Virus record (IMG/VR): IMGVR_UViG_3300020050_009955
Span: 35,356-99,355 of that record
Length of the DNA stretch: 64,000 bases
Direction: 5' to 3' (one strand)
DNA from: a virus
Taxonomy: Duplodnaviria > Caudoviricetes
The position numbers and the translations under genes are program-made. Below, one piece after another: positions 21,653 to 55,103 of this stretch (the first letter of the stretch is position 1; each line of letters begins with the position of its first letter). The notes beneath the pieces are model-generated. The model was not told where the DNA came from and searched no databases. It saw only the letters and a list, made by a program, of their open reading frames with translations.

Positions 21653-21656
21653 AAAT

Positions 21657-21993
21657 ATGAAAACTAAAGTAGAAGCACAAGGTGGTGTTTATAGTATAAA
21701 AAATAATATTAATAATAAAATTTATATAGGATCAACCTCAAATTTTAAAAGAAACTGAAGAAAAACTATCACTACATATGATTGAAACAAGAAAAAGCAA
21801 AGATTGGCCTATTTTTGTTGGAGAAAATAATCCAAATAGTAAATTTACAGATATACAAGTTTCCAATATTAAAGAAATGCTGCATGAAGGTATTAAGCAA
21901 AGTGACATTGCTAAAATGTTTAATGTTTCAAAAAGTTGTATTAATAAAATTTTTAAGAATAAAAGTTATAAAAATATAAGACATGCGTATTAA
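21657..21993 (+). pseudogene. Decayed GIY-YIG homing endonuclease (N-terminal GIY-YIG fragment plus a frameshifted NUMOD3/HTH remnant)
   Basis: 21657-21758 reads MKTKVEAQGGVYSIKNNINNKIYIGSTSNFKRN*. The +1 frame continues ETEEKLSLH...GENNPNSKFT...IAKMFNVSKSCI (HTH). The central catalytic part is missing. Confidence 0.8.
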
Positions 21994-22954
21994 TGCACAG
22001 GGAGGCGAGTTAGTATTACGAAACGAACATGGTGATACTATCATTGTACCACGAGAAAGAAGGAAAGAAGCTATGAAAGCTTTATTAAAAGATGATCATA
22101 GGGCTATAGATTCATTAGCTTTGCAGTTACCAAAAGCTGAATCTTATGCTGCTGAAGGCACAGTCATGAAAGGTGGGGATCCAGGAAAAGATTTATTTAG
22201 ACCTGATGGGACAAGAAAAGGAAAAGGATTTTATGGAAACTTGCCAAACAAAAATGGCAATATTTCTTCTGAATTGTCTATATCTTCTGGAGATATAGAA
22301 GACGGAAAAGATGTACTTATTCCTACTTTAATTCCTGGATTAAATAAAAGTGAAATAGATTATCTATTATCTAATAAATATAATCCACAATCAAGAAAAG
22401 GTATGGATGATATTATATCTAGGAAAGCTATAGATTTTGCGAGAAGTAGAAAACAACAAGGTTTTCCATATTTTGCACATGATATAGAAGAAGGAGCTTT
22501 TAAAATGCCTAATTATGCTACTGGAGGTACTGTATTAAATGGAGAAGATCCATTTAATACCACACTATTAAAACCACAACCATATAAACCCTCTAATAGA
22601 GTTTTAGATGCTAAAGGAGCTCTAGCAGGATTATCTCTAGCTGGTAATGCATTTGCACCTACTATTGGCTATGGTGCTCAGTTACTAAATGTAGGAGGAG
22701 ATTTGTATACAGGTACTAGGTATGCTATGGATGGGCAATATAAAAATGCTGCAATAGATTATGGCGAAGCTTTAGTTGGATTGATTCCTTCATCAAGAAT
22801 AATTGGTGGTAAAGGACCATTTGATAAAATTAGAGTAGTGGATAATACATACGCTAATAATTTTAATATAGCTCTAGATCTTTTAGACTTATCAAATACT
22901 CCAAATAATTATGATATGAAAAAACAAAATAATAAAAACAAAACTAAAAAGTAA
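21983..22954 (+). CDS. Modular virion-associated protein (323 aa) with repeated YAxxGTV..DP linkers
   Basis: ORF track. It begins NAQGGE, and YAAEGTVMKGGDP and YATGGTVLNGEDP separate three modules. Confidence 0.6.
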   Translation: MRINAQGGELVLRNEHGDTIIVPRERRKEAMKALLKDDHRAIDSLALQLPKAESYAAEGTVMKGGDPGKDLFRPDGTRKGKGFYGNLPNKNGNISSELSISSGDIEDGKDVLIPTLIPGLNKSEIDYLLSNKYNPQSRKGMDDIISRKAIDFARSRKQQGFPYFAHDIEEGAFKMPNYATGGTVLNGEDPFNTTLLKPQPYKPSNRVLDAKGALAGLSLAGNAFAPTIGYGAQLLNVGGDLYTGTRYAMDGQYKNAAIDYGEALVGLIPSSRIIGGKGPFDKIRVVDNTYANNFNIALDLLDLSNTPNNYDMKKQNNKNKTKK

Positions 22955-23367
22955 TGGCATATAATTTAGCAAATGAGGAAGAATTCGAATCTTCTCAAGA
23001 AAAGAAATCAGAAAACACAATAGCATATGTTCTATCTTGTATGATGGAGCTTAGAGATAATGCACATATAGCACATCTTCAATCTCGATCTTACGCAGAA
23101 CATATAGCTTTAAGCGAATTATACGATGCTATACCTGGCTTATTAGACAGCTTAGCAGAATCTTGGCAAGGTAAATATGGAATCATATCTGGTTACCATG
23201 CACCTATGATTCAAGAGGGTATGAATTTTATCGACTACCTTAAATCTAAGGTAGAAGAAGTAAATGAGTTTAGAAAAACTGTAAAAGATACTTACATTCA
23301 AAATCAACTAGATACTATAGTAGAAACATTCTCTGGTATCCTATATAAATTACAATACTTAAAATAA
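22954..23367 (+). CDS. Ferritin/Dps-like four-helix-bundle protein (DUF5856-like)
   Basis: HIAHLQ-x4-AEHIALSELYD-x6-DSLAESWQGKYG and a C-terminal QNQLD...LYKL pattern, typical of phage ferritin-like proteins. Confidence 0.75.
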   Translation: MAYNLANEEEFESSQEKKSENTIAYVLSCMMELRDNAHIAHLQSRSYAEHIALSELYDAIPGLLDSLAESWQGKYGIISGYHAPMIQEGMNFIDYLKSKVEEVNEFRKTVKDTYIQNQLDTIVETFSGILYKLQYLK

Positions 23368-23372
23368 ATTAA

Positions 23373-26300
23373 ATGAGTTGTCCCAATATTAATAGTCCAG
23401 AATGGAAAGATTTAGTCGAACTGGTTGGAGAACCTATGGCTTATAGAGTCTTTGCTGTAGATCCTGAATTAACTAGAGTTAATGAATTGCGCCAGAATTT
23501 TCTAGATGAAAAAAGAAAATTCTCATTTGCTATACGTAGGCCTAGAAATACATCTTCAAGGGCAAAATCAGAAATAAGTGAAACTTATGAGAAGGTTTTA
23601 AAAAGTATTGATAGAGCTAATAGTGTTGAAAGTAGAAGTAGTTCCTTCACTAAAGTTTTAAATTTAGGAGCTACTCTTGATTCTACAATAGATTATAAAG
23701 GATTAACCACACCTGATGGGGTTATTAATAAATTTAGACAAAAAGCACATATAGATTCAGTAGAGTACATAAGGAAGCAGGCAGAAGAATTATATAAAGA
23801 TACAGTACCAGGAACTAAAATCTTACATGTTTTCTCTAAAGATCCTTTAACAAAAGAAGAGTATATAGAAAATAGAAAGAGATACAGTGAGTATGCTGCA
23901 CATAGGGGGAAGGTTATGGAATTGATATTAACTATTCCTTTGATGACACAAGGTGTGGAACAAGATAAAGCATTTGAAGAGTTAGATGATTTATATGATA
24001 AGATAAATGAGTATAAAGAGTTTTTAGAATCTATATTAGAAGAAAAAAAAGCTAAGATTAATGATACTTGGCATGGTTGGGCGTTAGAAGATAAGAGATT
24101 CCCTAAAAGAATATTCGATATTTTAGGTATAGATATTTTTTCAGAGGATTCTACAGTGCATTATACTTTCCAACCTACGATGAAATCAGATATCTTAGAG
24201 ACTAAAGCGGTATTAGATATGCTTATAGAGCATGAGCCTCATAGGTATTCTATAATAGATTTTAAGGCTGGTTTTAAATTTGGACAAATGTCTAGTTCTA
24301 TACCTTTAAAATATTATAGGCAGGCCACTGGAGATATTAGTGATAACCCACAAGATATAGCGAAACTTCAAATAATGTGGGAAGCTATGTTAGTTAGGAT
24401 AAATGATCCTAAAGCAACTTTTCAAAATCTAACAGCTATATGGATAACAGAAGAAAACTCTTTATATAAATCTGGAATAAAGTTTCATGTTAATCCTAGA
24501 GATTACATAGGAATTATAGTGGAATATTTAAAAGCTGAACATCCTGAAAAATATGAAAAGCTTTTATTAATTGATCCAGAGTTATTTGATTTTAGGACAT
24601 ATACTGCTGAGAGTACTGAATCAAAAGAATTTAAAAAACGATTTCCTGATTCTGCAGAAGATAAGTTATTGAATGATGTTACTCAGGAGATAATATATCG
24701 GCAAAATTATATGGACTATAATACTGATGGAGAACGTAGAGGTGTAGATAATAAAATTAGAGATCTATATGACTTAATGTTAGATCACAATGCTGATAAT
24801 GTGGCTAAGACTGGAATGGGTCTTAATAAGAATATGGATTTTAAGACTATTCGAGATTTATCTTTAGGTGAATATTGGGTAGGTTCTTTCTATAATATTA
24901 AACATGCTGTGATATCAGCAACTTTAGAGGTTGTTCATAAACAAATGCTTAAAGCTACTACTGATTACAATAAAGATAGTTTAATATTTAGGTCTATTAT
25001 GAAAAACATTATAATAGACTATGCAAAGGATAGAGACGCGGGTTCGGTAGATCGTTTACAAAACTTATTAGCGGATCCATTTACCGAGTGGAGTCCTGCC
25101 TTAAGAAAAATTTTAGGTACATTCGATCAAAATATTTTAAATGGTTGGATATATGTTACAAAATTTGACAAAGAATCTAATGCAAATGAAATGTTATACG
25201 CAACTACTGAAGAAGAGTTATTAGAAAATGCAAAAGATCCTAAGTATAAGTGGATTTTAGATTCTTCTGGTAAGGTAAAAAAACCATATATTCAAATGAT
25301 GCAATTCTTAAATGAGAAATATGGTTCTGTTTTAGATGCTAAGAGAAAAGATTCTATGTGGAATACTAAATTATCATATAAGTTAGTACATGGAAAACCT
25401 GTAGACATTTCATTTGGAGATGAAATCAATTCTTCAGAATATAGAAAAAGATCTCCATTTAAATATAAAAAAGGGTTCTTTCCAAAAGTTGCCAAATTGA
25501 GAGAAGAGTTTCCTGTATTATCTTTTAGAAACTTTTTTAAAAAATATTTCACAAACTTCTATGAATTAGCTTTTATGGAGTATGGAAATAATGATGAATT
25601 AATTCCAATACAAGGATTAACATCTAAGTATAATAGTATTGAAGGAGAATTTTCTATGTCTTTAGAAAATCAATTTGAGACTTTTATGAAGAGTGCGTAT
25701 GCGAAACAACATCTAACAAAAGCTTATGCTCTAATAGAGGCTATAAAAATTAAAAATTCAGATGTAAAAACTGGTAAGGTTTTATTACCTAGATTACAAT
25801 CTTGGTTAACTGCTCAACAAGAAATGGCTTTACGTGGAAGACGTCCACAATTAACGAATACCTTTTCTAGATCCCTACCATTTTCATTCTCATTTGCCAG
25901 TAAAGATGATGATCAAATGATTAAAACTATGCAAACATTTGACTTAGGAAAGTTTCTACAATCCTTTGGACAGCTTACAGGTTATATGCGATTAGGGTTT
26001 AATTTACCAGGTGGTTTTAAAAATACAATGGGTATAATGATGTCTTCTTTCACAGAAGCTTCTAAGCAATCTTTAATGCAAAGATTCTATAATGATCCAA
26101 AAGCAACTAGATTTATTAATGACTTTACTACTATGGGTGCTGCAGAATTTGCTTTAGCTTTAAAACCTGCAATAGGTATCCAAATAGATGGAATGAAGGG
26201 AAATCTTAATAAAAATAAAGCATGGGTTTTAATGAATAAATTTGGATATATTCCTTCAATCTCCCCATTAAGATCTGAAACTAAATATTTTACCTCTAAG

Positions 26301-30478: not shown

Positions 30479-31486
30479 TTAATTGACAACAGCGATTCTT
30501 CCATATGTCCTTGAAAGACCTCTTGCACTAACAGAACGTAAATATTTTTCTGCAATCATATGAGGTAAGGCTTGTTGGTAATGTTGAGCTGTTACATTAG
30601 GACATGGGTTATCTGGAATAACATCCATTCCTGGGTTTGTATTAGTTTCTGAGATATAGAATTTTCTTGTATGCTTGTTATACATAACATCAGTGCAACA
30701 GAAATCTAATCCCATTAATTCAGCAGCCTTCACAGAGGCTTCTACCATTTTGTCCCATTCTTCGGGTTTTCTAAAATTTGATGAGAAAGTAACTACTCCA
30801 GTAGCAAAATTCCTAGTTGCAGGATTTATTGCATATGGATTACGTAACTTCTTTTCGATTCCTAAAATTTCACCATTAGATCTAAGGTGTGTTCCACCAG
30901 AACGTACTGTCCAACTCCCTTCAGGAGTCTTTAAAGCATATTCATATTTGTAAACAATACTTTTATCTTTTAATAATGGTGAAACATGAATCCTGTATTC
31001 GTTTGTGAAAAGAAAATATTCCTCAAAGAAATATTCCCTAATTTTACTTGGCGGTATTTCGGCCACAAACTTTTGCAGATCCTCCGCATTATTAAGGAAA
31101 TACATACCTTTACCGCCAAATCCATATTTTAATTTAGCAACCATTGGGAATCCTATTTCCTGTTCTAGCAGATCTAATTTAGTTTGTCTAGCATCAATGT
31201 ATCTCGATGCATGATTGTATTTAAGCAACACTGGACAGTGTTCTTTAATTGTATCTTTCGTTAGAGTTTTAGAAGAACTAATTCTAATGCCAGAAGGAGT
31301 ATTAATTCGAAGTCTTTGTGGTTCGGAAGGTTTAGTAGAACCAAAGGAAACATCAACTGGGTAAGAAAAAACACAATTCTTAATAGGATATCTATCTGGA
31401 GAACCTATTGGAAAATTCGTATTTTTTCTAAAATAGCGCTTCATTTTTGAAGATTTGCCCCCAAAGAAGTTAGGATAATAACGCAT
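30479..31486 (-). CDS. ATP-grasp (RimK-like) amide ligase
   Basis: FPMVAK..GFGGKGM, EEY, EYRIHV, GLDFCCTDV and ISETNTNPG. Confidence 0.85.
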   Translation of the reverse strand: MRYYPNFFGGKSSKMKRYFRKNTNFPIGSPDRYPIKNCVFSYPVDVSFGSTKPSEPQRLRINTPSGIRISSSKTLTKDTIKEHCPVLLKYNHASRYIDARQTKLDLLEQEIGFPMVAKLKYGFGGKGMYFLNNAEDLQKFVAEIPPSKIREYFFEEYFLFTNEYRIHVSPLLKDKSIVYKYEYALKTPEGSWTVRSGGTHLRSNGEILGIEKKLRNPYAINPATRNFATGVVTFSSNFRKPEEWDKMVEASVKAAELMGLDFCCTDVMYNKHTRKFYISETNTNPGMDVIPDNPCPNVTAQHYQQALPHMIAEKYLRSVSARGLSRTYGRIAVVN

Positions 31487-33717: not shown

Positions 33718-35221
33718 TTAGGCATAATATTCATTAGCCTTATTAATTACAAAGTCAAGGTCATTGGGAATTTCTATATCATCAAACATACCCATTGGAC
33801 TTTTCCCTGGGTGTGTATCTGTTGTATTAGTTACAAATGTATAATCAGCTTTCTTAGCTACAGGATCATAATTAACTTTAGTATATAAGATACAAGTTAG
33901 GTTTTCTTCTGGAGAAAACTTTTCCTTAATCATTTTACCACCAAGTTTAATTTCTTTAGTTATACCATAACCATCTTTCATTTCCATATTTTCGTGAAAC
34001 ATGAAGACTATATTTAAATCTTCTCTACAGTTTTTAGCTGCTTGCATTATTTGAAAGAAATGGTTAGCCATATCAGAAAATTTGCTATCCGTGTGTATTT
34101 CTACACACGATGGACTATATCTTAACTTTGATTTTGTCTTACTTTTTGATTTATAATTTTTTCAATATCCCAACCTTTATGTTTTCTATCGACAATATTT
34201 AATATAGGTATACCAGACATTTCAGATAATTCTGTTAAAGTATATGATTGTCCTTTATAGTGATATAATTTATTAAATGGATCTTTTTGAATTGCTTGTT
34301 CAAATGTTAATCCACTTCTTGTGATTCTACCATACAAAGTATTGTATTTTATACCTAACTCTTTTGCCCAAGTTTTTAACGTCTGCGTCTTATTTTTATA
34401 AGTGATAAAAACATTGTGATTTATTTTATTATTAGCTTGAGTATATTTATCCGCCCATCTACAATTATCTTTAGTATAATTTCCATTACCATCTATTCTG
34501 TCTATGGAACATCCTTCCGGACATATTCCCATATCTTCTATAAAATTTTTAAATGAATTCCACCGTATATCAACTTGTATATTATGTAATTGGTAATAAG
34601 TGTTACTAAAGCATGTTGAATTACATCGAGCTCTTAAAGCTTTCCATATTCTATACTCTCTGGGATATTGTTTTTTAAATGATTCTTTCATTGTACACAT
34701 TGTTATTATTTTCAAAGTTCCCTCCGTTTCGGCTTAATAAGCCTACGTCTTACGACTAGTCTCTGAACGTTTCCCATTTTACAAGGACTTCGCTGCTGAT
34801 TGTCTAATATTAATAGTTTTTAAACATTCACGATTACAGTTTTCTGTTGCGTTGTAGTCTATTAATCTTAAAGAGTTTCCAGCAATTAGAAGGGTTTATA
34901 CAGAGCATAGCATTAATACCCTGCTTCATTAGAACGTTTAAATTCTTCTATGAACATAGTATAACCTACATCTTCTAGTACCACAGTTTTAATATCTGGT
35001 CTATCTGAAGATATCTTTTGCAAGATGGTTATAATTTGATCGTAACTAGAAATGTCAGCTAGATTTTTGGCTTCTTTATTGTATAATTTTTCGCTGCCCT
35101 TGAAGGGTAAAGCTTTACCTAATACGTTGATGATATATGTGGATTTGGGATCGAGGGTTCTAATCGAGGTAGATTTCCCTGACCCAGATTTGCCCACTAT
35201 CCCTATGAGACGTTTGTTCAT
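33718..35221 (-). CDS. AAA_24/Sak4-like ATPase, two exons (35221-34918 and 34088-33718; about 224 aa spliced)
   Basis: GKSGSGKSTS Walker A and VVLED Walker B in exon 1. The spliced junction reads AG-Y-SKFSDMANH. Exon 2 carries FHE, GKM and KSPMGMF..IPNDL. Confidence 0.88.
34089..34917 (-). mobile_element. Group I self-splicing intron carrying an HNH endonuclease
   Basis: Core elements P AATTGCTGGAAA, Q AATCAGCAG, R TTCAGAGACTA and S AAGATATAGTCC. P1 is GCAGGGU/GCUCUGU with the U.G pair, P10 is UGCUAU/AUAGCA, and there is a P9 hairpin and a terminal G. Confidence 0.92.
34122..34715 (-). CDS. Intron-encoded HNH homing endonuclease
   Basis: SIDRIDGNGNYTKDNCRWAD..QANN, followed by two C-terminal HTH-like repeats. 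Confidence 0.9.
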   Translation of the reverse strand: MKIITMCTMKESFKKQYPREYRIWKALRARCNSTCFSNTYYQLHNIQVDIRWNSFKNFIEDMGICPEGCSIDRIDGNGNYTKDNCRWADKYTQANNKINHNVFITYKNKTQTLKTWAKELGIKYNTLYGRITRSGLTFEQAIQKDPFNKLYHYKGQSYTLTELSEMSGIPILNIVDRKHKGWDIEKIINQKVRQNQS

Positions 35222-35329: not shown

Positions 35330-37156
35330 CTAATATTCGAGTATTCTCGAATGTTTAAAGTTATCTACCATCATCAGGATTTGCGATGAGGAGAATCTAG
35401 ATTTTAATATGTGCCAATATATCATGGCTTGTTGTGGATCTTTAGGATTAAAAACAGGTAATCCATAAACATATTCTGATCCTCGTGGTGGCCCATAATA
35501 GACACCTATTCCTTCTATTACTGCCGGTTTATGAGTGACAATAACGTAGTCCGAACAATAGTAGGCAGCACTAGATGCGAATAGGTCATTCTTATTAGGA
35601 TACTGTAACATAGGATTTGTAATTCTTTCCGATTTTTCAATATCTCGGTTGAGCTGGGATAATACTATAAAGATACACTTTAAATTGATAGTCTCAAAAT
35701 ATTTTTTTAATTGTATTAGAGTCTTATAAAGTTTATCTATTATTTGTTTCTCAGCATCTTCATTAACAGCTCCTTTAACAAGCAAACTATGGTCGAAAGT
35801 ACATACAAAACCTTTTCCTTTGGAAGCTAGTTGATTTTCTTGTACAAAGTTTAAAATCGTACTGACTATCTCTTCCACAGTGCCTACATCATCTACGATG
35901 TATATAGGATAATATTTCATTTTGTCCGCCTCTGTGCTTATTTTGGTGTACTGTGCATCTGTTAATTTAGATCCCGCAGAATACAATTCTTTTGTAGACA
36001 ATTCAACCTTAGACGATATGTCTCTAGCTACTTGATCTACACCTAGCATTTCCATCTCGAAAGATAAGATATCAAATTCCTGATCCTTGTTATAGTCCAC
36101 TATATCACGTTTGATCTGAGAGAGCATTAAGCTCTTTCCTGAGTTATGTACTACGATTCCATTAGCAATAAAATTATTGTAAGGAGCATTACACATAATA
36201 TCATATGTTTCTTCTACTCCACACGATTCAATTGATATAATTTTATCGTATTCAATAGTATACATATTATTCCTTAGTATTAAATGCTCTAGAGCATGTT
36301 CTTTCTTTGAAAGCAACTCTAAGTTATCAATAGAATTATTAGAAGTATTTCCATCTTTATGGTGAATTTCCATAGAACTATCTGAAAATATAAGATTTGA
36401 AGGATTATTAATACATTCTATTAGAAAGTCCTTTATATTTGTAAAACCGTTTAAATAGGCATCATACACAGCACGTTGTTCTAAACATTCTGCATAAACA
36501 TTATTATTTATAATTTTTAATCGAGCATTCGGATAATTAAAAAACTTTCCTGTAATACTTTTTCTATAATGACTCTTTTTAGGTTTTATTTTACTTTTGA
36601 ATCTAGATACTAAAAGATCTCCAATATGTAAATCAGATAGTGATTTATAGTGTTCTTCTGATTTATTTCCTATATGTGTTAAAAATTTATGATCTTTAGT
36701 AGCCTTTATTTTTTTACCAGATTCTGTAGTAATTTCAAATACTTCCTTCTTTCCGCTAAAAATAACAGCATTAATTTGTGTTTTCCCAATTGTATTTAAA
36801 TCTTCTTTATAACATTTGATATAAGATGGAATTTTTTTATTCCATTTACCATTTCCAGTAAATAAAAGATTATATTTTTCATATAATTCTTTTATCGTAT
36901 ACTTTCTAGAACTACTTCTTTTTCCTCTATTAACTTCAATAATAGTATCTGCAGATAGACATCCTGATAATCCGGCAATGGTTATAATTCTATTCCACTC
37001 CAAGCCTTCAAATAGGGCATCATTTAGTTTTTTAAACGAAGTTTTTAAAGAGGGTGCTTCACCCTTCATTCTTTTCTTTATAAATACTTTAGCATCATCT
37101 ATTTTTTTAGAATAATGAGCCACTGGTAAACTCGGCTTAAATGAATTCTTTTCCAT
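35330..37156 (-). CDS. dnaB: DnaB-like replicative helicase with an intein
   Basis: IAGLSG|SGKS Walker A after intein removal, SFEM, DH, SQLNR, DL..S and ILKSR motifs. Confidence 0.9.
   Translation of the reverse strand: MEKNSFKPSLPVAHYSKKIDDAKVFIKKRMKGEAPSLKTSFKKLNDALFEGLEWNRIITIAGLSGCLSADTIIEVNRGKRSSSRKYTIKELYEKYNLLFTGNGKWNKKIPSYIKCYKEDLNTIGKTQINAVIFSGKKEVFEITTESGKKIKATKDHKFLTHIGNKSEEHYKSLSDLHIGDLLVSRFKSKIKPKKSHYRKSITGKFFNYPNARLKIINNNVYAECLEQRAVYDAYLNGFTNIKDFLIECINNPSNLIFSDSSMEIHHKDGNTSNNSIDNLELLSKKEHALEHLILRNNMYTIEYDKIISIESCGVEETYDIMCNAPYNNFIANGIVVHNSGKSLMLSQIKRDIVDYNKDQEFDILSFEMEMLGVDQVARDISSKVELSTKELYSAGSKLTDAQYTKISTEADKMKYYPIYIVDDVGTVEEIVSTILNFVQENQLASKGKGFVCTFDHSLLVKGAVNEDAEKQIIDKLYKTLIQLKKYFETINLKCIFIVLSQLNRDIEKSERITNPMLQYPNKNDLFASSAAYYCSDYVIVTHKPAVIEGIGVYYGPPRGSEYVYGLPVFNPKDPQQAMIYWHILKSRFSSSQILMMVDNFKHSRILEY
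36143..36961 (-). mobile_element. Intein (273 aa) with an HNH endonuclease, inserted in the DnaB P-loop
   Basis: Starts CLSADT, has block B ATKDHKF, ends YDI...NFIANGIVVHN and is followed by Ser. Internal EIHHKDGNTSNNSIDNLELL..EH. Confidence 0.93.
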
Positions 37157-43748: not shown

Positions 43749-44138
43749 TTAAATGTCTTCAGCTAAAATTCTTTCGACATTTCTATAACGTATTCTTGTT
43801 AAAAGTTGGTATGAACTAATAGTTCCTGGGTTTATGGTAAATTTCTTACCATTCTTCTCTCCAGTCTCAATAATGCCTATATTTAGTAAGGCTTGACCAA
43901 AATGAGTTTTTGGGTTATCTTCTAGGTATTTGGTTAGAAATTGTAATATTTCATTGTTACATTCAACAATGGTAGATTTCTGTTTTTTGGGATGACTCTC
44001 TTCCTTTTTGGATGGCTTCATTATCATATAAACAATTAGTACGATAAGTAGCATTCCTAAGAAGTAAATAATCATCTCAGGATTTTCGTTTGCCCACATT
44101 TTAAGTTTTTCCATAATTATTGTTTTTGAATTTCCCAA
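43749..44138 (-). CDS. Single-pass membrane protein
   Basis: N-terminal TM segment IIYFLGMLLIVLIVYMI. Confidence 0.6.
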   Translation of the reverse strand: MGNSKTIIMEKLKMWANENPEMIIYFLGMLLIVLIVYMIMKPSKKEESHPKKQKSTIVECNNEILQFLTKYLEDNPKTHFGQALLNIGIIETGEKNGKKFTINPGTISSYQLLTRIRYRNVERILAEDI

Positions 44139-44563
44139 TTACCAGAAGGGATCTCTGGAAAAGACCCTTTAGGAGATTGATTAATTACGTTAAGAAGTCT
44201 ATTACCGGCTATATAAATAAAAGCTTTTTTGCCTTCACTAATAAAATAAGAATGTAAATCAAATAAATTGTTTTCTCTTGTGTCGTTATAGCCTTCTAAA
44301 ATATTAATTGTATTTAATACTAATCTTGTAACTTTATACAATTCTCCATGTATTTCTGGACCGTTTTCATCAAATACTAATGCTGGATATTGATTGTATA
44401 TATTCAATAGCTTAAACGTTCCTTGACGTATTGTTGTTTCTTCAATAAATTCAGATCCTTTTACATCTAGATATCTGTGATTACTACCACCTCTTTTTAA
44501 AGTTCCGTAAACAAATACGAAGATATCCTCTTCTTGTTCTTGTTTGTTTTTCTTTTTAGGCAT
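44117..44563 (-). CDS. Gamma-glutamylcyclotransferase (AIG2/GGACT-like)
   Basis: VFVYGTLKRG..NH, YPAL, GELY and LEGY. Confidence 0.9.
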   Translation of the reverse strand: MPKKKNKQEQEEDIFVFVYGTLKRGGSNHRYLDVKGSEFIEETTIRQGTFKLLNIYNQYPALVFDENGPEIHGELYKVTRLVLNTINILEGYNDTRENNLFDLHSYFISEGKKAFIYIAGNRLLNVINQSPKGSFPEIPSGNWEIQKQ

Positions 44564-44564
44564 A

Positions 44565-45212
44565 TTACTCGATTAATAAATTAATAATAGATTTTTTTAA
44601 CTCGACTAATTTTTTAGTAGCTGCATTTTTTTCAGCAACTTTATTTTGAAATTTCTTTTGCCAATTAAGTACAGCAATTTCGTAGTTTTTACAAGATTCT
44701 TGTAAAGATGTGTTTATTGATGCTAATTCTTCATTTCGTGCAACTGCTTCTCTAAGACTTGCTTTGTAGCTTTGATGAGTCTCTTCTGCAGTTTTTTTAA
44801 ATTCTGTAAAATCTGTTTTACAATTTTCAAATTTCTTCTGCCAATTAACTATAGCAATTTCATAGCTTTTACAAGCATCTTGTAGGGCTGTGTTTTTTAA
44901 TGTTAATTCTGAAACTTCTCCATTAAGTCTTTCAACTTCTTTTTTTAATTCTTCAGTTTTCTTTTCAAATTTATCAACTAATTCTTTCTCAAAATTTTCT
45001 GTAATTTTAACAATATGTGCTTCAGCTCTTAGCCTTCCTTCGATTTCAATTTTTATAGCTTCTTTCAAACTACGTACTTCATTTTCTAACATAGTTTTCT
45101 TCTTTACCCTTTCAAAGTATTTATTTTTTAAACTTATATTTTCTGATGCTAGTCTTGAAACTTCTTCTGAAAGCTTTTCGACTTCCTTTTTCAATTCTTC
45201 AATTGCAGCCAT
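44565..45212 (-). CDS. Coiled-coil protein with internal duplications
   Basis: Heptad pattern, with EELKKEVE twice and NTxLQxxCKxYEIAxxNWQKKF twice. Confidence 0.7.
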   Translation of the reverse strand: MAAIEELKKEVEKLSEEVSRLASENISLKNKYFERVKKKTMLENEVRSLKEAIKIEIEGRLRAEAHIVKITENFEKELVDKFEKKTEELKKEVERLNGEVSELTLKNTALQDACKSYEIAIVNWQKKFENCKTDFTEFKKTAEETHQSYKASLREAVARNEELASINTSLQESCKNYEIAVLNWQKKFQNKVAEKNAATKKLVELKKSIINLLIE

Positions 45213-45228
45213 AAGGTAATTTTTATTG

Positions 45229-45555
45229 TTAGTAAATCTCTTTCCCGTTTACCTTAAGAAATGAATCTTTAGGTAGTTTATCCAGTTCATCAATTTCTTT
45301 GTTTGCTACTGGACCTATTTTATGTAGTACTCTAACTTTGTACGTGCTAGATGCATTTGGTATTGTACCGTCTACGAATTCTACTTGGTATCTATCAAAG
45401 CGATAGACTAGTTGTTTTTGAGTAGGTGATTCGTATTCTGTTTCAGATTTGAGAATAATAGGCAGGCCAAGGCTAATCAATTTGACTAGCCTGGCTTTCC
45501 CTATCAATTCAGTTTGTAATTCGTCGTGGTAAATATTTACAACCTCTCCAATCAT
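45229..45555 (-). CDS. Hypothetical protein (likely start MIGEVV)
   Basis: ORF track; the ATG sits 1 nt after the upstream stop. Confidence 0.55.
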   Translation of the reverse strand: MIGEVVNIYHDELQTELIGKARLVKLISLGLPIILKSETEYESPTQKQLVYRFDRYQVEFVDGTIPNASSTYKVRVLHKIGPVANKEIDELDKLPKDSFLKVNGKEIY

Positions 45556-45556
45556 A

Positions 45557-46249
45557 TTATAACTTATACATATGAATGTGCAATCCAGTCGCACGTCTAT
45601 TTTCAAATATATATTCACTAAATCTATCTCTAAATTCGTCTAATCGACGAGATCTAGGTTTATCTTCCACGTAAAAAGAAAGCTTATGGTCTTGCAGCCA
45701 TTCTAGGCCCCCGGGGCTTATAAGCCATTCTAACATATTGCGGCCATGTTTATCCATGTTGATATCGATGGCTTCGCCTGTGGAGTGTTTGGAGTGCTTG
45801 CAATAGAGCCTCCGCATTGAGGTTATTAAAACACTTCCAGGTCCATTATAAGATTTAAGTGCTTTACATAGCGAACTATGTAAGTATCTGTCAACGTTAG
45901 ATGCTACTCTAAATCCTTCAAAAGACATTATTGACGATTTTTTGGATTTATTGATCTTGCGATTCTTAGCAACGTTGTCAGATTTTTTATTTGAACGGTT
46001 TTCGTGCTTCTGGACAGTAAGTTCTGCTAAGGAGTCCACATTACATTGATAGTAATCTATAATCTCTAACAATTCATCTGTTTTTTGCACAGTCATTTGA
46101 TGGGTTTCTTTAATTTCTGTATACAAATAAGTACAAGTTGCTAATAGCAGCATATTCATAAATATAGATACTAATTGAAATTGAGAAAGTTTGAATTCTT
46201 TAATCTTGGATTCTATTTTCTCTGTAACCCATTTTGAAGCTAAATACAT
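45557..46249 (-). CDS. Membrane-anchored M15-like (LAS) Zn peptidase, putative peptidoglycan endopeptidase
   Basis: ITS.RR...SKHSTGEAIDI (H-x6-D) and GLHIH (HxH), with an N-terminal hydrophobic anchor. Confidence 0.7.
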   Translation of the reverse strand: MYLASKWVTEKIESKIKEFKLSQFQLVSIFMNMLLLATCTYLYTEIKETHQMTVQKTDELLEIIDYYQCNVDSLAELTVQKHENRSNKKSDNVAKNRKINKSKKSSIMSFEGFRVASNVDRYLHSSLCKALKSYNGPGSVLITSMRRLYCKHSKHSTGEAIDINMDKHGRNMLEWLISPGGLEWLQDHKLSFYVEDKPRSRRLDEFRDRFSEYIFENRRATGLHIHMYKL

Positions 46250-46271
46250 AATATTAATTTAAGTAATTTCA

Positions 46272-46526
46272 AAACACACTTTAAACTGATCTGTTTCACC
46301 CTCAGCAGGCGCAGACATTTAATATCTGCGGTCAGGTGTGTATAGCATACGAAGAGCCTTGTCAGTTCAAAGAATCTCTGCTTTTTGGAAAGCAGGATTA
46401 TTGTGATTCCTCGGTGTGAACTTTTCAACGTATACTCGATTGGATGGCGTAGTATCTCCTACGATTTTTGGCACCCAAACCGAATCTTTAATCCCATCTC
46501 TTCACGAGCCTGAGATATATGCTCTT
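46272..46526 (-). ncRNA. Candidate structured RNA, family unassigned
   Basis: GC-enriched intergenic region with nested helices AGCAUAU/GUAUGCU, GAAGAG/CUCUUC, CGUAG/CUACG, CUGCUUU/AAAGCAG, CGCAGAUA/UGUCUGCG and ACACAC/GUGUGU. Confidence 0.5.
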
Positions 46527-46565
46527 TTATAATATAGAAGTTTTCCTTCTTTATTTGTAATTTGT

Positions 46566-47921
46566 TTAATACCGTCTAGACCGTATCCGATACCTAGCGG
46601 CTTGTGCGTTTGTACGTCTCGAAGAACTAGAAATTGGTTTGCGGCTATTAGATCCACTATTCATTGTTCTAGCTTTTTCGGCGTTCAGTTCTTCTTCACG
46701 TTTTCTTTTGAGTAATTCATTGCGTTTAATTTTTAGTTTAGAAATTGGTTCCAAGTCAGAAGCTGTAACGACTTTGTCAACTACAGCTTTAGTTTTTAAA
46801 TGTTTTTGTCTTTTTAAATACCAGTTTTGTAATACTGGATGAGTTATCACATCAAAGATGTGTATATCTGATTCTATAGGTTTATCAAAATCGTATGCGT
46901 ATTGGCATAAACACTGTAACGCTAAAATCCAATTTTCTAATTGATAAATATCAGAGGTTGCATTTACAAATCTGAATTCTTGAAAATTTGCATTAGATTT
47001 GGTTGGATATAAAGCATTATATTTTACATCATAATGATTAAACATATAATTAATGACGTCATTTATTGATGTATAACGAGAAGTAAAAAATTTACAATAA
47101 TCATTATCTATTCTGTGTCTTGGTACTATATGTGTAAATCCAGGTTCCAAATATACAAATAAAGTTAATAGTCTGGTAAGATATTGCCTTTTATTTGCAA
47201 TATTTAATGTCGGAAGTTTGAAGTTTATATGCAATCCACATGAAGGGTTAACAAACATACAAGGATTCCCATCATTAGCTTTAACTTTGAAAAGAAAAAA
47301 AGCTTTTCGCAATTCTTTGAAATCATACAAAGCTGGTGTAGAAAATTCTATTTTATAAGCAGCTGTAGAAAGTGTTAAGCTAATTTCTTCATCCAAAGTT
47401 GGAGATTTTGTAATACGTTTAATATTACTGGTAAGGACTTTTAGGTATTCCTTAGTTTCAGCTAAACTGTTTTTTATATCTTCCGGTACTTTTTCCATAT
47501 CTTCAGGAGATAATGTATAATTAACTGCCGCATCCCCTCTATAATTTAAATTATTTATACTTTTTGTATCTATTGTATATGGAAACTTACCTTCAGTAGC
47601 TAATTTCTTTAACTTTTCTTCATCTACTCTAATACTACCATCATGATGTAGATACCAATAAGGATATGGGTATAGATCGCCACTAGAACCGCCACTACTA
47701 TTAGGATTTATAGAACATCCAACAGATTTCATTAATTGCCTCATTGTAATACGATCATAAGCCGTCCAAGCTTCTATCTCTACGTATGGTAAAAAGTTTG
47801 TATCGATTTTAGGTCTAGGGTTTTGTCTAAGGAATTTAGCTAACTCAAGACGAGTTAATTCATCCTCTAATATTTTTCCGTCTTCTAAGCATTTTAAAGC
47901 TTTTTCAGTTATGTTCGGCAT
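46566..47921 (-). CDS. Putative amidoligase (COOH-NH2 ligase / glutamine-synthetase-like fold)
   Basis: VEIE, HHDGSI, IEFSTP, SCGLHIN, R..NDYC, KYNAL and EFR. Confidence 0.8.
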   Translation of the reverse strand: MPNITEKALKCLEDGKILEDELTRLELAKFLRQNPRPKIDTNFLPYVEIEAWTAYDRITMRQLMKSVGCSINPNSSGGSSGDLYPYPYWYLHHDGSIRVDEEKLKKLATEGKFPYTIDTKSINNLNYRGDAAVNYTLSPEDMEKVPEDIKNSLAETKEYLKVLTSNIKRITKSPTLDEEISLTLSTAAYKIEFSTPALYDFKELRKAFFLFKVKANDGNPCMFVNPSCGLHINFKLPTLNIANKRQYLTRLLTLFVYLEPGFTHIVPRHRIDNDYCKFFTSRYTSINDVINYMFNHYDVKYNALYPTKSNANFQEFRFVNATSDIYQLENWILALQCLCQYAYDFDKPIESDIHIFDVITHPVLQNWYLKRQKHLKTKAVVDKVVTASDLEPISKLKIKRNELLKRKREEELNAEKARTMNSGSNSRKPISSSSRRTNAQAARYRIRSRRY

Positions 47922-48825
47922 TATTTTTCAATTTGTAAAGTGAAGAAATTCTCTTTATCAGATTAGAGTATTTTGAAGGTTCAAGTAGAACAAAGTCAAT
48001 AAAATTTTCTTTAAGTAAGTTATTATTTGAAGACTTTTTACAAAAATGTATTAAAGCAAATCCAAACTCTACAATGGAATTAAATTCTTCTATATTTAGT
48101 GTAGATCCGAACCAACGAACCTCTAAGCATCTTCTTCCACACTTTGATGCCCATAAATTGAAAACACTATTAAAAGAAGTTTTATGATTATCATCCTTAA
48201 AGAATTTTACAATTTGATCTCTGTGATCAGAAAAACTTCTGAAAACTATTCTTGGATCTTCTGTACCGTAAGTATTTCCTAAAAAGGAGTTCATATCGGT
48301 CAATATTTGAGCACCTCTTTTTCTAGAGGACATCCGGATCATAAAATCAATGTTATTAAATGCGAATTCGCATAGTTTTTTGATTACTAACGCTCTTTCC
48401 CTGGCATTTTTGCCTAAAAAATCATAATCAATATTAAGATGTATTCCGGCAGTCAGCTTCTCATCAGAAAATCCTAAGCTTTTTGCTGTTTCCATGAATT
48501 TTTTAAGATTGTCTTGAAACCTTGAATTTTTATAAAGAGTCAAACATCTTGGTGCAATATTAGCTTCTACACCACCACCATCTAAAACAAAGTCTTCGTG
48601 TAGTGGAAATTCTTCTTTAAAATATGGTATTAAAACGTTTAAAATAACATCGGCACTTGGTTTTATACCTTCTGCAACTAATTTATTTGTTGTAATCCAC
48701 TGCCAAGTAGCACGTTTTTGTATGTGGTCTGGATCGTAAGCAATTTCATATTCAACTGAAATCATATCAGGATCAGAATTAGTTACATATCCAGTATATT
48801 TACCTAAATTAATTTCCTTTTGCAT
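47905..48825 (-). CDS. Second putative amidoligase
   Basis: SVEYE, LDGGGVE, AGIHLN, SSR and LEVRWF.STL. Confidence 0.75.
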   Translation of the reverse strand: MQKEINLGKYTGYVTNSDPDMISVEYEIAYDPDHIQKRATWQWITTNKLVAEGIKPSADVILNVLIPYFKEEFPLHEDFVLDGGGVEANIAPRCLTLYKNSRFQDNLKKFMETAKSLGFSDEKLTAGIHLNIDYDFLGKNARERALVIKKLCEFAFNNIDFMIRMSSRKRGAQILTDMNSFLGNTYGTEDPRIVFRSFSDHRDQIVKFFKDDNHKTSFNSVFNLWASKCGRRCLEVRWFGSTLNIEEFNSIVEFGFALIHFCKKSSNNNLLKENFIDFVLLEPSKYSNLIKRISSLYKLKNNAEHN

Positions 48826-49561
48826 TTTTACTCATTATTTCGTTAATCAATTCGTGAGTAATTAAATCACCAATAAGACTTCCAGTTTGTTTGAAAGTCG
48901 ATGATGATAATAAGTTGTACATCCTTTCGGGATGATGTTGTACTCCAGCTATAGGGAGTGTTTTATGCTTAAAAGCTTCTACACATTCTACATTATCAGC
49001 ACTACCAGCACCACTAAAAGCTACAGCTTCTAGATCAGAGCCTAAAATACTAACAGCTTGGTGATGAGAAGTATTTACTTTATACTCGTGGTTTTTTGAT
49101 TTGATAATATGCAGTCCTGTATTTACATCATGACCGTCTATATGAGCATACATTTTTGAGCCGAAGTGTGCAGCTAGTAGCTGAAAGCCTAGACATATTC
49201 CAAATATTGGAATCTTGTGTTCAATATAAGAATCTAATAGAAATGTTCTAAAAAATTCAATATGTGGATCAGTCTTACCATGTTGATAAGATAATTTTCG
49301 ACCTAAGAATGCTTTATTAGTAGCACTCAGGTCAGCACCTCCAGTAATAATTAATAAGTCAAGATCACCTCGAAATTCATCCGGCATTACAAGGCGAGGA
49401 TTGCCTTTGGTGGCGGCAAAATCGAGATATTGTGACATGGAGTGATTGGAGGTATGTGGTGAGAATAGAACTCCGACAGTTCTTCCTGAATTTCCCGATC
49501 CCTCTTTGGAGGTGGGGGTAATGATTTCGGGGACGAACGGACTAACAATGGTTTGTGACAT
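48809..49561 (-). CDS. Class I glutamine amidotransferase / gamma-glutamyl hydrolase (peptidase C26-like)
   Basis: TGGAD, GICLGFQ, VNTSHHQAV and GVQHHPE (C-H-E triad). Confidence 0.9.
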   Translation of the reverse strand: MSQTIVSPFVPEIITPTSKEGSGNSGRTVGVLFSPHTSNHSMSQYLDFAATKGNPRLVMPDEFRGDLDLLIITGGADLSATNKAFLGRKLSYQHGKTDPHIEFFRTFLLDSYIEHKIPIFGICLGFQLLAAHFGSKMYAHIDGHDVNTGLHIIKSKNHEYKVNTSHHQAVSILGSDLEAVAFSGAGSADNVECVEAFKHKTLPIAGVQHHPERMYNLLSSSTFKQTGSLIGDLITHELINEIMSKNAKGN

Positions 49562-49716
49562 ACCTTAGAATTGGGTTTTGGTTTTTTAATGAATCTTTTA
49601 GTTTTTCCTACGTAATCAACCACAGGTTTAACTGCGATAATCGTAGGCTCCGGGTCATTAGTTTCAATATCAAATACTTCAACTAACGTGTCTAAAGCTT
49701 CTTCTCTACTGATCAT
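49387..49716 (-). CDS. Hypothetical protein overlapping the 5' end of the GATase gene
   Basis: ATG at 49716 just after the upstream stop; Pro-rich tail in the 175-nt overlap. Confidence 0.5.
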   Translation of the reverse strand: MISREEALDTLVEVFDIETNDPEPTIIAVKPVVDYVGKTKRFIKKPKPNSKVCHKPLLVRSSPKSLPPPPKRDREIQEELSEFYSHHIPPITPCHNISILPPPKAILAL

Positions 49717-49723
49717 ACGCTAT

Positions 49724-50482
49724 TTATTTAATTCTTATTCTCTCTCCTGGAAAAACAACGAAATTTTCTCTATTTTTTACCTTAGGATTGAGATTTAATA
49801 ATGTTCGAACTTCAATACATTTTGAATCTGCTAACAGCTTTAAGTTTTCACCAGCTTTTATAATGTGGTATTCAGTACCATTTGATGTACAGACAGTATT
49901 GTTGGATGGTTTTGGTATTATAGGCGCTTTAGCATAAAATTTGTTTTCTCCTAGTTTAACATAAGATACTTTAGAATTCTTTAATCCGATTTCGAAATTA
50001 ATTTCTTTATTGGTTTCGGATGTTAAAGATGTTTTTAGAATGTTATATTCAATGGTTAAGTTTCGTGTCCACGGTTTGGAGACTGTAAAATCACAACCCA
50101 TAGTAATAGCCATGTTTTTATCATATTGCTGTAATGTCAGTTTTGTAGCATCTAAAAGGAAATAGAAAACTTTATCTGACTTATAGCCGTTATTAGCTGT
50201 GGGTAAATAGTGATAAAAAGTTAAAGATTTGTCTAAGACAATATTTTCTTTAATTTCTAAGTTCAAGGTTGAGTTTGAGGATTCTGGCTCTGGTGAGGAT
50301 TCTGCAATAGGTTGAGGATCTGGTTGCTTAGGTGCAACTTGTGTTGGAAAGGTGTTTTCCGAGCCATTTGTTAGTGATGATACAAAGGAAGTATCAACTA
50401 CAGGTGTAGAATTCTTAAAAGAATTGGGAGGTGTTGGCGTACATCCTATTAAAAATAGGAAAAATATAACAACATTACGCAT
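49724..50482 (-). CDS. Lipoprotein with a C-terminal LysM domain
   Basis: Signal peptide with lipobox LIGC, and YHIIKAGENL..LA.....RTLLNLNP......VFPGERIRI. Confidence 0.8.
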   Translation of the reverse strand: MRNVVIFFLFLIGCTPTPPNSFKNSTPVVDTSFVSSLTNGSENTFPTQVAPKQPDPQPIAESSPEPESSNSTLNLEIKENIVLDKSLTFYHYLPTANNGYKSDKVFYFLLDATKLTLQQYDKNMAITMGCDFTVSKPWTRNLTIEYNILKTSLTSETNKEINFEIGLKNSKVSYVKLGENKFYAKAPIIPKPSNNTVCTSNGTEYHIIKAGENLKLLADSKCIEVRTLLNLNPKVKNRENFVVFPGERIRIK

Positions 50483-52358: not shown

Positions 52359-52399
52359 AAAAGAATTATAGGCCGGTTATAATAGACCGGCCTATTTTT
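52359..52399. terminator. Intrinsic terminator, possibly bidirectional
   Basis: ATAGGCCGGT-tataatag-ACCGGCCTAT with A/T tracts on both sides. Confidence 0.75.
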
Positions 52400-54569: not shown

Positions 54570-55103
54570 TTAAGAGGAGGCTTGTTTCTTAAGTTCATGA
54601 ACTTTTTGTACATAACTGAGAATATCTCTCAACTTTGTGGGGTAAGATTTATCCTCAGCATAACCATAATCAACGAGGAATTGAATATACTCCTCATTGG
54701 TTTTGACCTTCTTACCACGACTAGCTTCATATCGGGACAGGTACTTCTGTTGCCATGCTATGTAGTCTTTCAACGAAGCGCTAAAATCCCCACCATAATC
54801 TGCATGACCTAGTTGTGATCCCTTAGAGAATCCCCTCTTGTTGTGTTTCATACCGAAACCATTCCCATTCTTCAAAAATACCTCTGAAGACGCATATCCT
54901 GTTTCCAAGATAAATTGAGACATAACAACTTCAGGGAATCTTGCCCCAGCATCTACTATAGGCTCGAATGCTTTGTTCCACTTCTCTATTACCGGAGTAA
55001 CTCCCCGAATAACAGTAGAAATGCGTGGACGCTCAGTAAACAATATTACAGCTATTAATGCGGCTGTACAAAAACCGGCAGCGAAAGCTAATGTATTTTT
55101 CAT
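54570..55103 (-). CDS. GH73 glucosaminidase (peptidoglycan hydrolase) with an N-terminal anchor
   Basis: SQFILETGY, NGFGMK and GYAEDKSY.KL. Confidence 0.85.
   Translation of the reverse strand: MKNTLAFAAGFCTAALIAVILFTERPRISTVIRGVTPVIEKWNKAFEPIVDAGARFPEVVMSQFILETGYASSEVFLKNGNGFGMKHNKRGFSKGSQLGHADYGGDFSASLKDYIAWQQKYLSRYEASRGKKVKTNEEYIQFLVDYGYAEDKSYPTKLRDILSYVQKVHELKKQASS

Follow-up and report, generated by a model that had tools for sequence, protein, structure and literature searches.

A phage gene cluster combining ATP-grasp, COOH-NH2 ligase, Amidoligase_2, glutamine amidotransferase (GATase) and gamma-glutamylcyclotransferase (GGCT) genes was reportedly described by Iyer, Abhiman, Burroughs and Aravind in Mol Biosyst in 2009. 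It is among the most widespread phage gene sets without a known product, its hosts including crAss-like, LUZ24-like, Bjorn-like, Vibrio and cyanobacterial phages. The cluster was seen in Cellulophaga phage phi14:2 (g037-g041), Pseudomonas phage Bjorn (gp20-26), cr108_1 (gp028-033), Vibrio phage IME234, the LUZ24-like phage UFV-P2 (PMC3890496) and Leptolyngbya phage Lbo-JY46. In phi14:2, the gene order is primase, GGCT, ATP-grasp, COOH.NH2 ligase, class-II amidotransferase (GAT-II), amidoligase and uracil-DNA glycosylase (UDG); in Bjorn, it is COOH.NH2 ligase, amidoligase, GFAT-like protein, ATP-grasp, GGCT and primase. The present analysis concerns a block of genes at positions 44117-50482 of a 64 kb stretch of viral DNA (hereafter the window), which is the right-hand part of the 99,355-bp virus record IMGVR_UViG_3300020050_009955, with an estimated completeness of 97%. 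Taken together with the chemistry proposed below and with the recognition of a TGA-bearing open reading frame (ORFX) as a protein gene, this block is probably a local, rearranged version of the phage 'ATP-grasp / glutamine synthetase (GS)-like amidoligase / GATase / GGCT' cluster, located in the replication arm of the genome.

Comparison of the block with the known cluster

GS-like ligases, an ATP-grasp enzyme, a GATase and a GGCT all occur in the replication arm of the window phage. The relatives found for its GATase, ATP-grasp and GGCT genes belong to phages in which the cluster is contiguous. The likeness to the clusters of phi14:2, Bjorn and cr108_1 thus lies in the GS-like amidoligases, the glutamine amidotransferase, the RimK-like ATP-grasp and the GGCT, and in the proximity of primase, UDG and polymerase genes. 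Every gene of the block is on the minus strand and overlaps its neighbor or is separated from it by fewer than 20 nt, apart from a gap of 316 nt (46250-46565). Along the coding strand, the block encodes a LysM lipoprotein, a small conserved protein of 109 aa, a class-I GATase, two amidoligases (A and B), ORFX, a LAS-type peptidase, a conserved protein of 108 aa, a coiled-coil protein and a GGACT-type cyclotransferase. Synteny and orthologues were assessed against L001, the closest relative with readable DNA, whose record is 95% complete; the series from the lipoprotein to the 108-aa gene is syntenic in that genome.

The block also departs from the known cluster. It holds two very divergent Amidoligase_2 paralogues, its ATP-grasp gene is detached by 15 kb, and the LysM lipoprotein, the LAS peptidase, ORFX and the 108-aa protein are interleaved among the enzymes, whereas canonical clusters (phi14:2, Bjorn, cr108_1, IME234, Lbo-JY46) lie intact among replication genes and contain no wall genes. 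This variant places a minimal enzyme set beside genes for a LAS peptidase and an exported lipoprotein with a LysM domain, and thereby offers a concrete envelope hypothesis together with a small gene set.

Two of the assignments are solid, those of the GATase and of GGACT. The GATase (48809-49561, minus strand) is a class-I enzyme whose top Pfam match is Peptidase_C26 (E 9.6e-21, 75 bits against a cut-off of 20.5), followed by GATase (E 2.1e-17); it also matches PHROG 7218 (E 3.7e-25), and its intact triad (Cys123, His210, Glu212) is invariant in the alignment with L001. The GGACT/AIG2-like gamma-glutamyl(amine) cyclotransferase (44117-44563, minus strand) matches Pfam GGACT over profile positions 1-119 of 120 (E 5.4e-16, 59.7 bits against a cut-off of 22.8) as well as PHROG 2520 (E 4.4e-13), and YGTL and EG motifs can be read in its translation. 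Its sole match among deposited phages was the GGCT gene within the Bjorn cluster. The RimK-like ATP-grasp ligase (30479-31486, minus strand), found beside the UDG and primase genes, matches CPSase_L_D2 (E 1.8e-6) and RimK (E 0.002). Its tblastn matches were ATP-grasp genes of phi14:2, cr108_1, LUZ24-like phages, RIO-1 and Lbo-JY46, and these genes lie inside amidoligase clusters in those examined (phi14:2, cr108_1 and UFV-P2); the homologues are annotated as S6 glutaminyl transferase. A complex prediction for the GATase with amidoligase A gave a score of 0.05 and argues neither for nor against binding.

An earlier examination of the same DNA, made from its letters alone (the sequence-only reading), had described co-oriented and tightly packed genes, a C26-like class I GATase, a GGCT, a distant ATP-grasp ligase and a glycoside hydrolase of family GH73, and had related the block to the phage amidoligase clusters. 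All of these descriptions were confirmed. Its proposals of two amidoligases, a LysM lipoprotein and an M15-like peptidase were confirmed indirectly, as described in the following sections.

The two amidoligases

Amidoligase A (47905-48825, minus strand) is a divergent Amidoligase_2/GS-like protein of 306 aa. A profile search against 1.8 billion representatives retrieved 111 relatives, and 14 of the 60 that were aligned match PF12224 (best E 3.4e-10). Residues E25, E27, E87 and R168 are invariant in this alignment, while H129, E235 and R237 are nearly so. The AlphaFold model of this protein (predicted local distance difference test, pLDDT, 95.6) is closest to YbdK (1r8g, Z 11.9 over 229 residues, root-mean-square deviation 4.0) and to a plant glutamate-cysteine ligase (GCL; 2gwc, Z 11.3), and it reaches Z values of about 10 with many GS and Dop/PafA structures; 152 chains were at Z of at least 8, and gamma-glutamyl-methylamide synthetase was among the best matches.

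Amidoligase B (46566-47921, minus strand) is a second divergent Amidoligase_2 protein, of 451 aa. PF12224 is matched by two of its five homologues, P0006 (47% identity, E 2e-120) and P0007 (38% identity, E 3e-74), with a best E of 2e-9, and the protein itself shows similarity to PHROG 7469, 'amidoligase enzyme' (E 0.004). Residues E48, E50, E192, H231, R270, E315 and R317 are invariant and follow the same order as in amidoligase A, so that both proteins share the ordered set ExE...E...H...R...ExR, which we take to be the catalytic set of the ligase superfamily. Membership of both ligases in Amidoligase_2 is well supported through their homologues, and for ligase A also through the predicted fold; fold evidence covers ligase A, and ligase B is assigned from sequence. 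Orthology of the two ligases to g039 and g041 of phi14:2 was considered and is not claimed.

The LysM lipoprotein and the putative LAS peptidase

The first gene of the block (49724-50482, minus strand) encodes a protein whose signal peptide ends in a lipobox, L-I-G-C, as read from the translation, and which carries a LysM domain at its C-terminus. In the window protein, the LysM match is below the cut-off (E 0.088), but at the same C-terminal position the orthologue at L001:7473-8192 (64% identity) exceeds the cut-off of 20.9 with 32.7 bits (E 7.4e-8). The LysM domain is confirmed through this orthologue. T4 Spackle is a periplasmic superinfection-exclusion protein, and the L001 lipoprotein shows a faint match to it (E 0.059) that is far below threshold and can serve as a lead only.

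The gene at 45557-46249 (minus strand) encodes a putative membrane-anchored zinc peptidase of LAS type (M15/M74-like), with an N-terminal transmembrane helix and a long helix, a disordered linker and a C-terminal catalytic domain. Its Pfam match to Peptidase_M15_4 (E 0.049) is below the cut-off. The motifs S-x-H-x2-G-x-A-x-D and H-x-H, which fit the zinc-ligand patterns H-x(3-6)-D and H-x-H of LAS metallopeptidases, are conserved in eight homologues (44-81% identity), among which H155-x6-D162 and H224 are invariant and H226 is present in seven. The model has a pLDDT of 71.6 overall and of about 90 in the domain core. The full-length model compared with the PDB was swamped by the N-terminal helix, and a sequence search of the PDB returned nothing relevant; the domain alone (residues 107-230) gave low Z values, with MepA (5.5 over 112 residues) and Hedgehog-N (4.8) followed by VldE, ChiX and 1lbu, all of which are LAS folds. 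Conserved motifs and predicted fold together lend moderate support to a LAS zinc peptidase, although the structural and Pfam matches are weak.

Homologues of this peptidase and of the ligases come from contigs of the same length: P0123 with the ligase homologues P0003 and P0006 (67.6 kb), and P0122 with P0002 (4.8 kb). Because of these shared lengths, the arrangement of LysM and LAS genes with ligases, which is found in L001, is probably also present in two further lineages.

A TGA-bearing gene in place of the structured RNA

The gap between amidoligase B and the peptidase had been read as a structured RNA. This candidate was rejected: the gap has no Rfam match, its folding energy (z -3.7 against shuffles in the window) is not reproduced in L001 (z -1.2), and 247 of its 316 nt fall within a protein gene, ORFX (46319-46720, minus strand), of 133 codons with four in-frame TGA. 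When aligned with L001, the gap showed a conservation above that of the flanking genes. With TGA translated as tryptophan, the window (133 codons) and L001 (132 codons) versions of ORFX are 67% identical and differ by a single one-codon indel, the flanking genes being 38-50% identical. TGA is found at codons 12, 20, 73 and 118 in the window, with TGG at codon 82, and at codons 19, 72 and 81 in L001, with TGG at codon 117; the two genomes have thus reciprocally swapped TGA and TGG at two tryptophan columns. Differences at codon positions 1, 2 and 3 number 38, 25 and 73, pN is 0.225 and pS 0.78 (saturated), giving a pN/pS of about 0.29, and the other two frames contain 7-15 stops even under code 4. 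As judged from these comparisons, ORFX is a conserved protein gene under purifying selection, whose translation requires three or four TGA codons to be decoded as tryptophan. Such a case indicates that 'intergenic structured RNAs' in phages of this kind can be mis-called coding genes.

The opposite possibility, that ORFX is untranslated and represents a non-coding RNA or a decaying relic with an incidentally open frame, draws on the better-than-shuffled folding of the window spacer and on the four TGA, which would halt standard translation in a phage that lacks a suppressor tRNA and ends other genes with TGA. It has difficulty with the third-position bias and low pN/pS at saturated synonymous sites, with the single whole-codon indel in a frame better conserved than its neighbors, with the TGA/TGG swaps at tryptophan columns and with the stops in the other frames, and the lack of an Rfam match and the ordinary fold of L001 add to this. 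We regard it as quite improbable.

The first 51 codons or so of ORFX overlap the C-terminal tail of amidoligase B (46566-46720, minus strand). This basic tail is conserved in all five homologues of the ligase, yet its DNA evolves as dictated by the +1 frame, that of ORFX, with 15, 7 and 25 substitutions by ORFX codon position. The tail of ligase B therefore looks overprinted by ORFX, since the substitutions in the overlap follow the ORFX frame.

Transcription of the region is shown by a strain of the window phage that is 99% identical to it (L006, RXKB01000023.1, 103,683 bp). There, ORFX is interrupted between the positions equivalent to 46354 and 46355 of the window (minus strand), as located by the blastn breakpoint, by a group I intron of 794 nt (RF00028, 71.7 bits for a gathering score of 50, E 7.8e-18), inside which lies an HNH-like ORF. 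Removal of L006:11568-12361 restores ORFX with 0 differences from the window in 402 nt, and the intron also shows that the site is a homing target. Like group I introns with HNH endonucleases in other phage genes, it is preceded by a U, has a terminal G and contains such an HNH-like ORF; unlike in the usual phage cases, its host gene is a small TGA-bearing ORF without an assigned function. The L006 contig was deposited within a metagenome-assembled genome (MAG; isolate AWTP1-30) assigned to 'Candidatus Dependentiae'. This placement is probably a binning artefact and was not taken as evidence for the host; the MAG contains prfB, and TGA is hence a stop codon in it.

TGA-recoded (code 4) phages of standard-code hosts have been reported by Borges et al., with 26-71% of genes affected in recoded clades (bioRxiv 10.1101/2021.08.26.457843). 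The window phage resembles them in the in-frame TGA at tryptophan positions of ORFX, in being AT-rich and distantly crAss-like, and in its preference for TAA stops. It differs from them in that one of about 91 genes is affected, in that this gene belongs to the replication arm and not to the late or lysis genes, in its lack of a suppressor tRNA, and in that seven genes still end in TGA. The other 90 or so ORFs contain 284 TGG, and none of them depends on decoding of TGA; for TGA-ending genes with comparable orthologues (two cases), these end in TAG or TAA. Searches with ARAGORN, with and without introns, and with Rfam found no tRNA in the window genome or in the L001 record, and the reader of TGA in ORFX is not phage-encoded. 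ORFX thus departs from what has been published, namely the recoding of entire blocks of late genes with the help of a suppressor tRNA.

It is conceivable, if rather doubtful, that ORFX is UGA-gated, its protein being made only when an opal-reading tRNA from outside the phage is available, and that it acts as a sensor or timer tied to the activity of the module. The tRNA could be a host tRNA-Trp variant or a suppressor from a co-infecting TGA-recoded phage. If this were true, such gating could serve, for instance, in competition between phages.

A hairpin spans the ORFX stop codon both in the window (46310-46330, minus strand; arms CGCAGA/TCTGCG) and in L001 (about 11660-11685; arms CGTAAT/ATTACG); both arms have changed, yet they still pair. 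A role in regulation or termination is possible.

Possible chemistry and substrates of the module

Several observations weigh against the reading of the block as a version of the known cluster with ORFX as a protein gene. A literature search found no paper reporting the product of the cluster, so that product and substrate are unreported for every member. The GATase of this 97%-complete genome is of class I alone, with no class-II GATase (PF13522) and no PF14395 ligase. Neither amidoligase matches Pfam directly at thresholds as lenient as E 10, and PF12224 found nothing in any of the six frames of the genome; the two ligase profiles compared with each other gave an hhalign probability of 6%, and compared with the phi14:2 ligases a low probability, with the H and ExR motifs alone aligning. 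The ATP-grasp gene is 15 kb away, and its functional link with the block would follow by analogy with other phages. The GGACT gene and the coiled-coil gene have no counterpart in L001 and are, on this comparison, accessory in this lineage. As for ORFX, it matches no Pfam or PHROG family, its DNA comes from two independent lineages only, there is no explanation for the decoding of its TGA codons, and neighboring genes appear to terminate at TGA.

By the chemistry of their families, both ligases would use ATP to activate a carboxylate, most likely the gamma-carboxyl of glutamate, as an acyl-phosphate and would join it to an amine. The GATase would supply ammonia from glutamine or hydrolyze gamma-glutamyl amides, and GGACT, where present, would release the amine as 5-oxoproline forms. 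A write/erase system, as suggested by the sequence-only reading, fits this making and breaking of gamma-glutamyl or amide bonds, except that the presumed eraser GGACT is missing from L001. In this lineage, the ligase genes lie between those of the exported LysM lipoprotein and of the membrane-anchored LAS peptidase, so that the cell envelope is a possible, though unproven, target.

The acceptor can be sought among small amines or peptides, proteins, peptidoglycan precursors and DNA bases, and no single one of these is favored strongly. One tentative possibility is that the GS-like ligases gamma-glutamylate a polyamine or another amine in the manner of the Puu or Pau systems, with the C26 and GGACT enzymes recycling the products, so that host polyamine, glutamate or glutathione pools would be reshaped during replication. 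The E. coli Puu pathway, in which the gamma-glutamylputrescine synthetase PuuA works with PuuD, a Peptidase_C26 enzyme, provides an established design of GS-like ligase plus C26 hydrolase, and mammalian GGACT, from whose gamma-glutamylamine cyclotransferase activity the family is named, acts on gamma-glutamyl amines. The window module shares with these the GS-fold ligase, the C26 hydrolase as top match of the GATase, and the make-and-break of gamma-glutamyl amides, and YbdK, GCL, GS and gamma-glutamyl-methylamide synthetase are the best structural matches of ligase A. However, no orthology to Puu proteins was shown at the sequence level, no transporter, oxidase, dehydrogenase or other Puu-type gene was seen nearby, the setting is a phage replication module, and two ligases plus an ATP-grasp enzyme suggest several successive ligations and not one. 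Modification of a host or phage protein, with glutamyl or peptide tags added by the ligases and the ATP-grasp enzyme in the manner of PafA or RimK and trimmed by the GATase and GGACT, would suit the RimK-like character of the ATP-grasp ligase and the S6 glutaminyl transferase annotation of its homologues, and Dop/PafA are among the structural matches of ligase A (Z about 10). Modification of host proteins has moreover been proposed for related phage ATP-grasp ligases (PMC4431377). This option appears unlikely all the same, given that ligase A resembles PafA/Dop no more closely, by Z value, than it resembles GS, that no small tag-like protein ending in Glu or Gln was identified and that no target is known.

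A peptidoglycan substrate had been preferred by the sequence-only reading: the enzymes would build or amidate a glutamyl wall precursor, the LysM and LAS proteins would act on the altered wall, and the outcome would be superinfection exclusion or lysis control, with GGACT and the C26 enzyme as erasers. It is favored by the synteny that joins the lipoprotein and peptidase genes to those of the ligases in L001, by the probable linkage in the lineages of P0122 and P0123, and by the coding strand from 52368 to 43749, on which no terminator-like site was found besides two weak hairpins; the faint Spackle match of the L001 lipoprotein points the same way. Pairing of a GATase with a ligase also follows the logic of MurT/GatD, which amidates the D-Glu of peptidoglycan with a glutaminase subunit and an ATP-dependent ligase acting on a glutamate carboxyl (PMC3267633), and this likeness would fit the wall neighbors. 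MurT, however, has the Mur-ligase fold whereas the phage ligases are GS-like, GGACT is dispensable in L001, canonical clusters manage without wall enzymes amid replication genes, the LAS assignment is itself only moderately supported, and adjacency within a phage operon does not imply a common pathway. A peptidoglycan substrate is thus not established and must be held doubtful. Very improbable, finally, is a decoration of modified DNA bases by the amidoligases and the amidotransferase, as suspected for uncharacterized thymidine-hypermodification clusters. There are viral contigs in which amidoligase and amidotransferase domains accompany genes for thymidine hypermodification (PMC8989533), and the cluster is always in the replication module, beside UDG, primase or polymerase genes. 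Against this, the 97%-complete genome has no thymidylate-synthase-like hydroxymethylase, and no 5-hydroxymethyldeoxyuridine kinase or pyrophosphorylase was noticed among the annotated neighbors, no accession-based search of that family having been made; a Tet/JBP search of the genome was empty but uninformative, as the controls were equally without match.

Genomic context and minor observations

The window phage has one arm of plus-strand genes, including an ORF of 6,320 codons, and a minus-strand arm of replication genes encoding an intein-bearing DnaB helicase, an SF2 helicase, a primase, a UDG and PolA. PolA shares just 27-32% identity with its counterparts in crAss001, IAS virus, cr111_1 and Leptolyngbya phage Lbo-JY46, and this water phage of about 99 kb is therefore, going by PolA, only distantly crAss-like. 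No match to deposited phages was obtained by blastn of the whole region or by tblastn of both ligases and the LAS peptidase. When viral contigs were scanned with amidoligase B, with alignments of ORFX and of closer amidoligase A relatives, and with a DNA pattern, the outcome was L001 alone or nothing, and the sole find of a metagenome scan was a near-duplicate of L001.

Among the smaller genes of the block, the 109-aa ORF (49387-49716, minus strand; 37% identity to L001:8195-8533 over 106 aa) and the 108-aa protein (45229-45555, minus strand; 67% identity to L001:12429-12758) have no family match. The true start of the latter, as read from the sequence, is the ATG right after the peptidase stop. 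With its 3' half, the 109-aa ORF overlaps the 5' end of the GATase ORF by 175 nt (49387-49561) in a different frame, and an overlap is present in the window and in L001 alike. A wrongly placed start in one of these ORFs is probable; otherwise this is a second overprinted stretch. The coiled-coil protein (44565-45212, minus strand, 215 aa) owes its description to sub-threshold matches to coiled-coil Pfam families. Outside the module, the gene at 54570-55103 (minus strand) encodes a GH73 N-acetylglucosaminidase (Glucosaminidase, E 5.3e-11; 70% identity to L001) and is a probable endolysin.

In the cultured cyanophage Lbo-JY46 (16548-24853), the GGCT, GATase and ATP-grasp genes directly follow those for PncB (nicotinate phosphoribosyltransferase) and PrsA (phosphoribosyl pyrophosphate synthetase), an adjacency suggestive of a connection with NAD or nucleotide metabolism.

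Other intervening elements were found in the replication arm. A group I intron (RF00028, 54.7 bits) at 34720-34894 (minus strand) splits an AAA_24/Sak4-like ATPase gene; the flanking ORFs are at 34913-35221, 34122-34715 and 33718-34071, both halves of the ATPase match PF13479 and one ORF is intronic. Apart from the introns noted here, none of group I was found in the window genome or in the L001 record. The DnaB-like helicase (35330-37156, minus strand) is interrupted by an intein that includes an HNH endonuclease (Intein_splicing, E 1e-18; HNH_3, E 4e-10), and its L001 orthologue of 335 aa is without this insert. A strong bidirectional terminator-like hairpin of 10-11 pairs (52368-52395) lies between an AAA ATPase gene and the genes entering the module, and is the sole strong site of this kind on the coding strand within 52900-43700.

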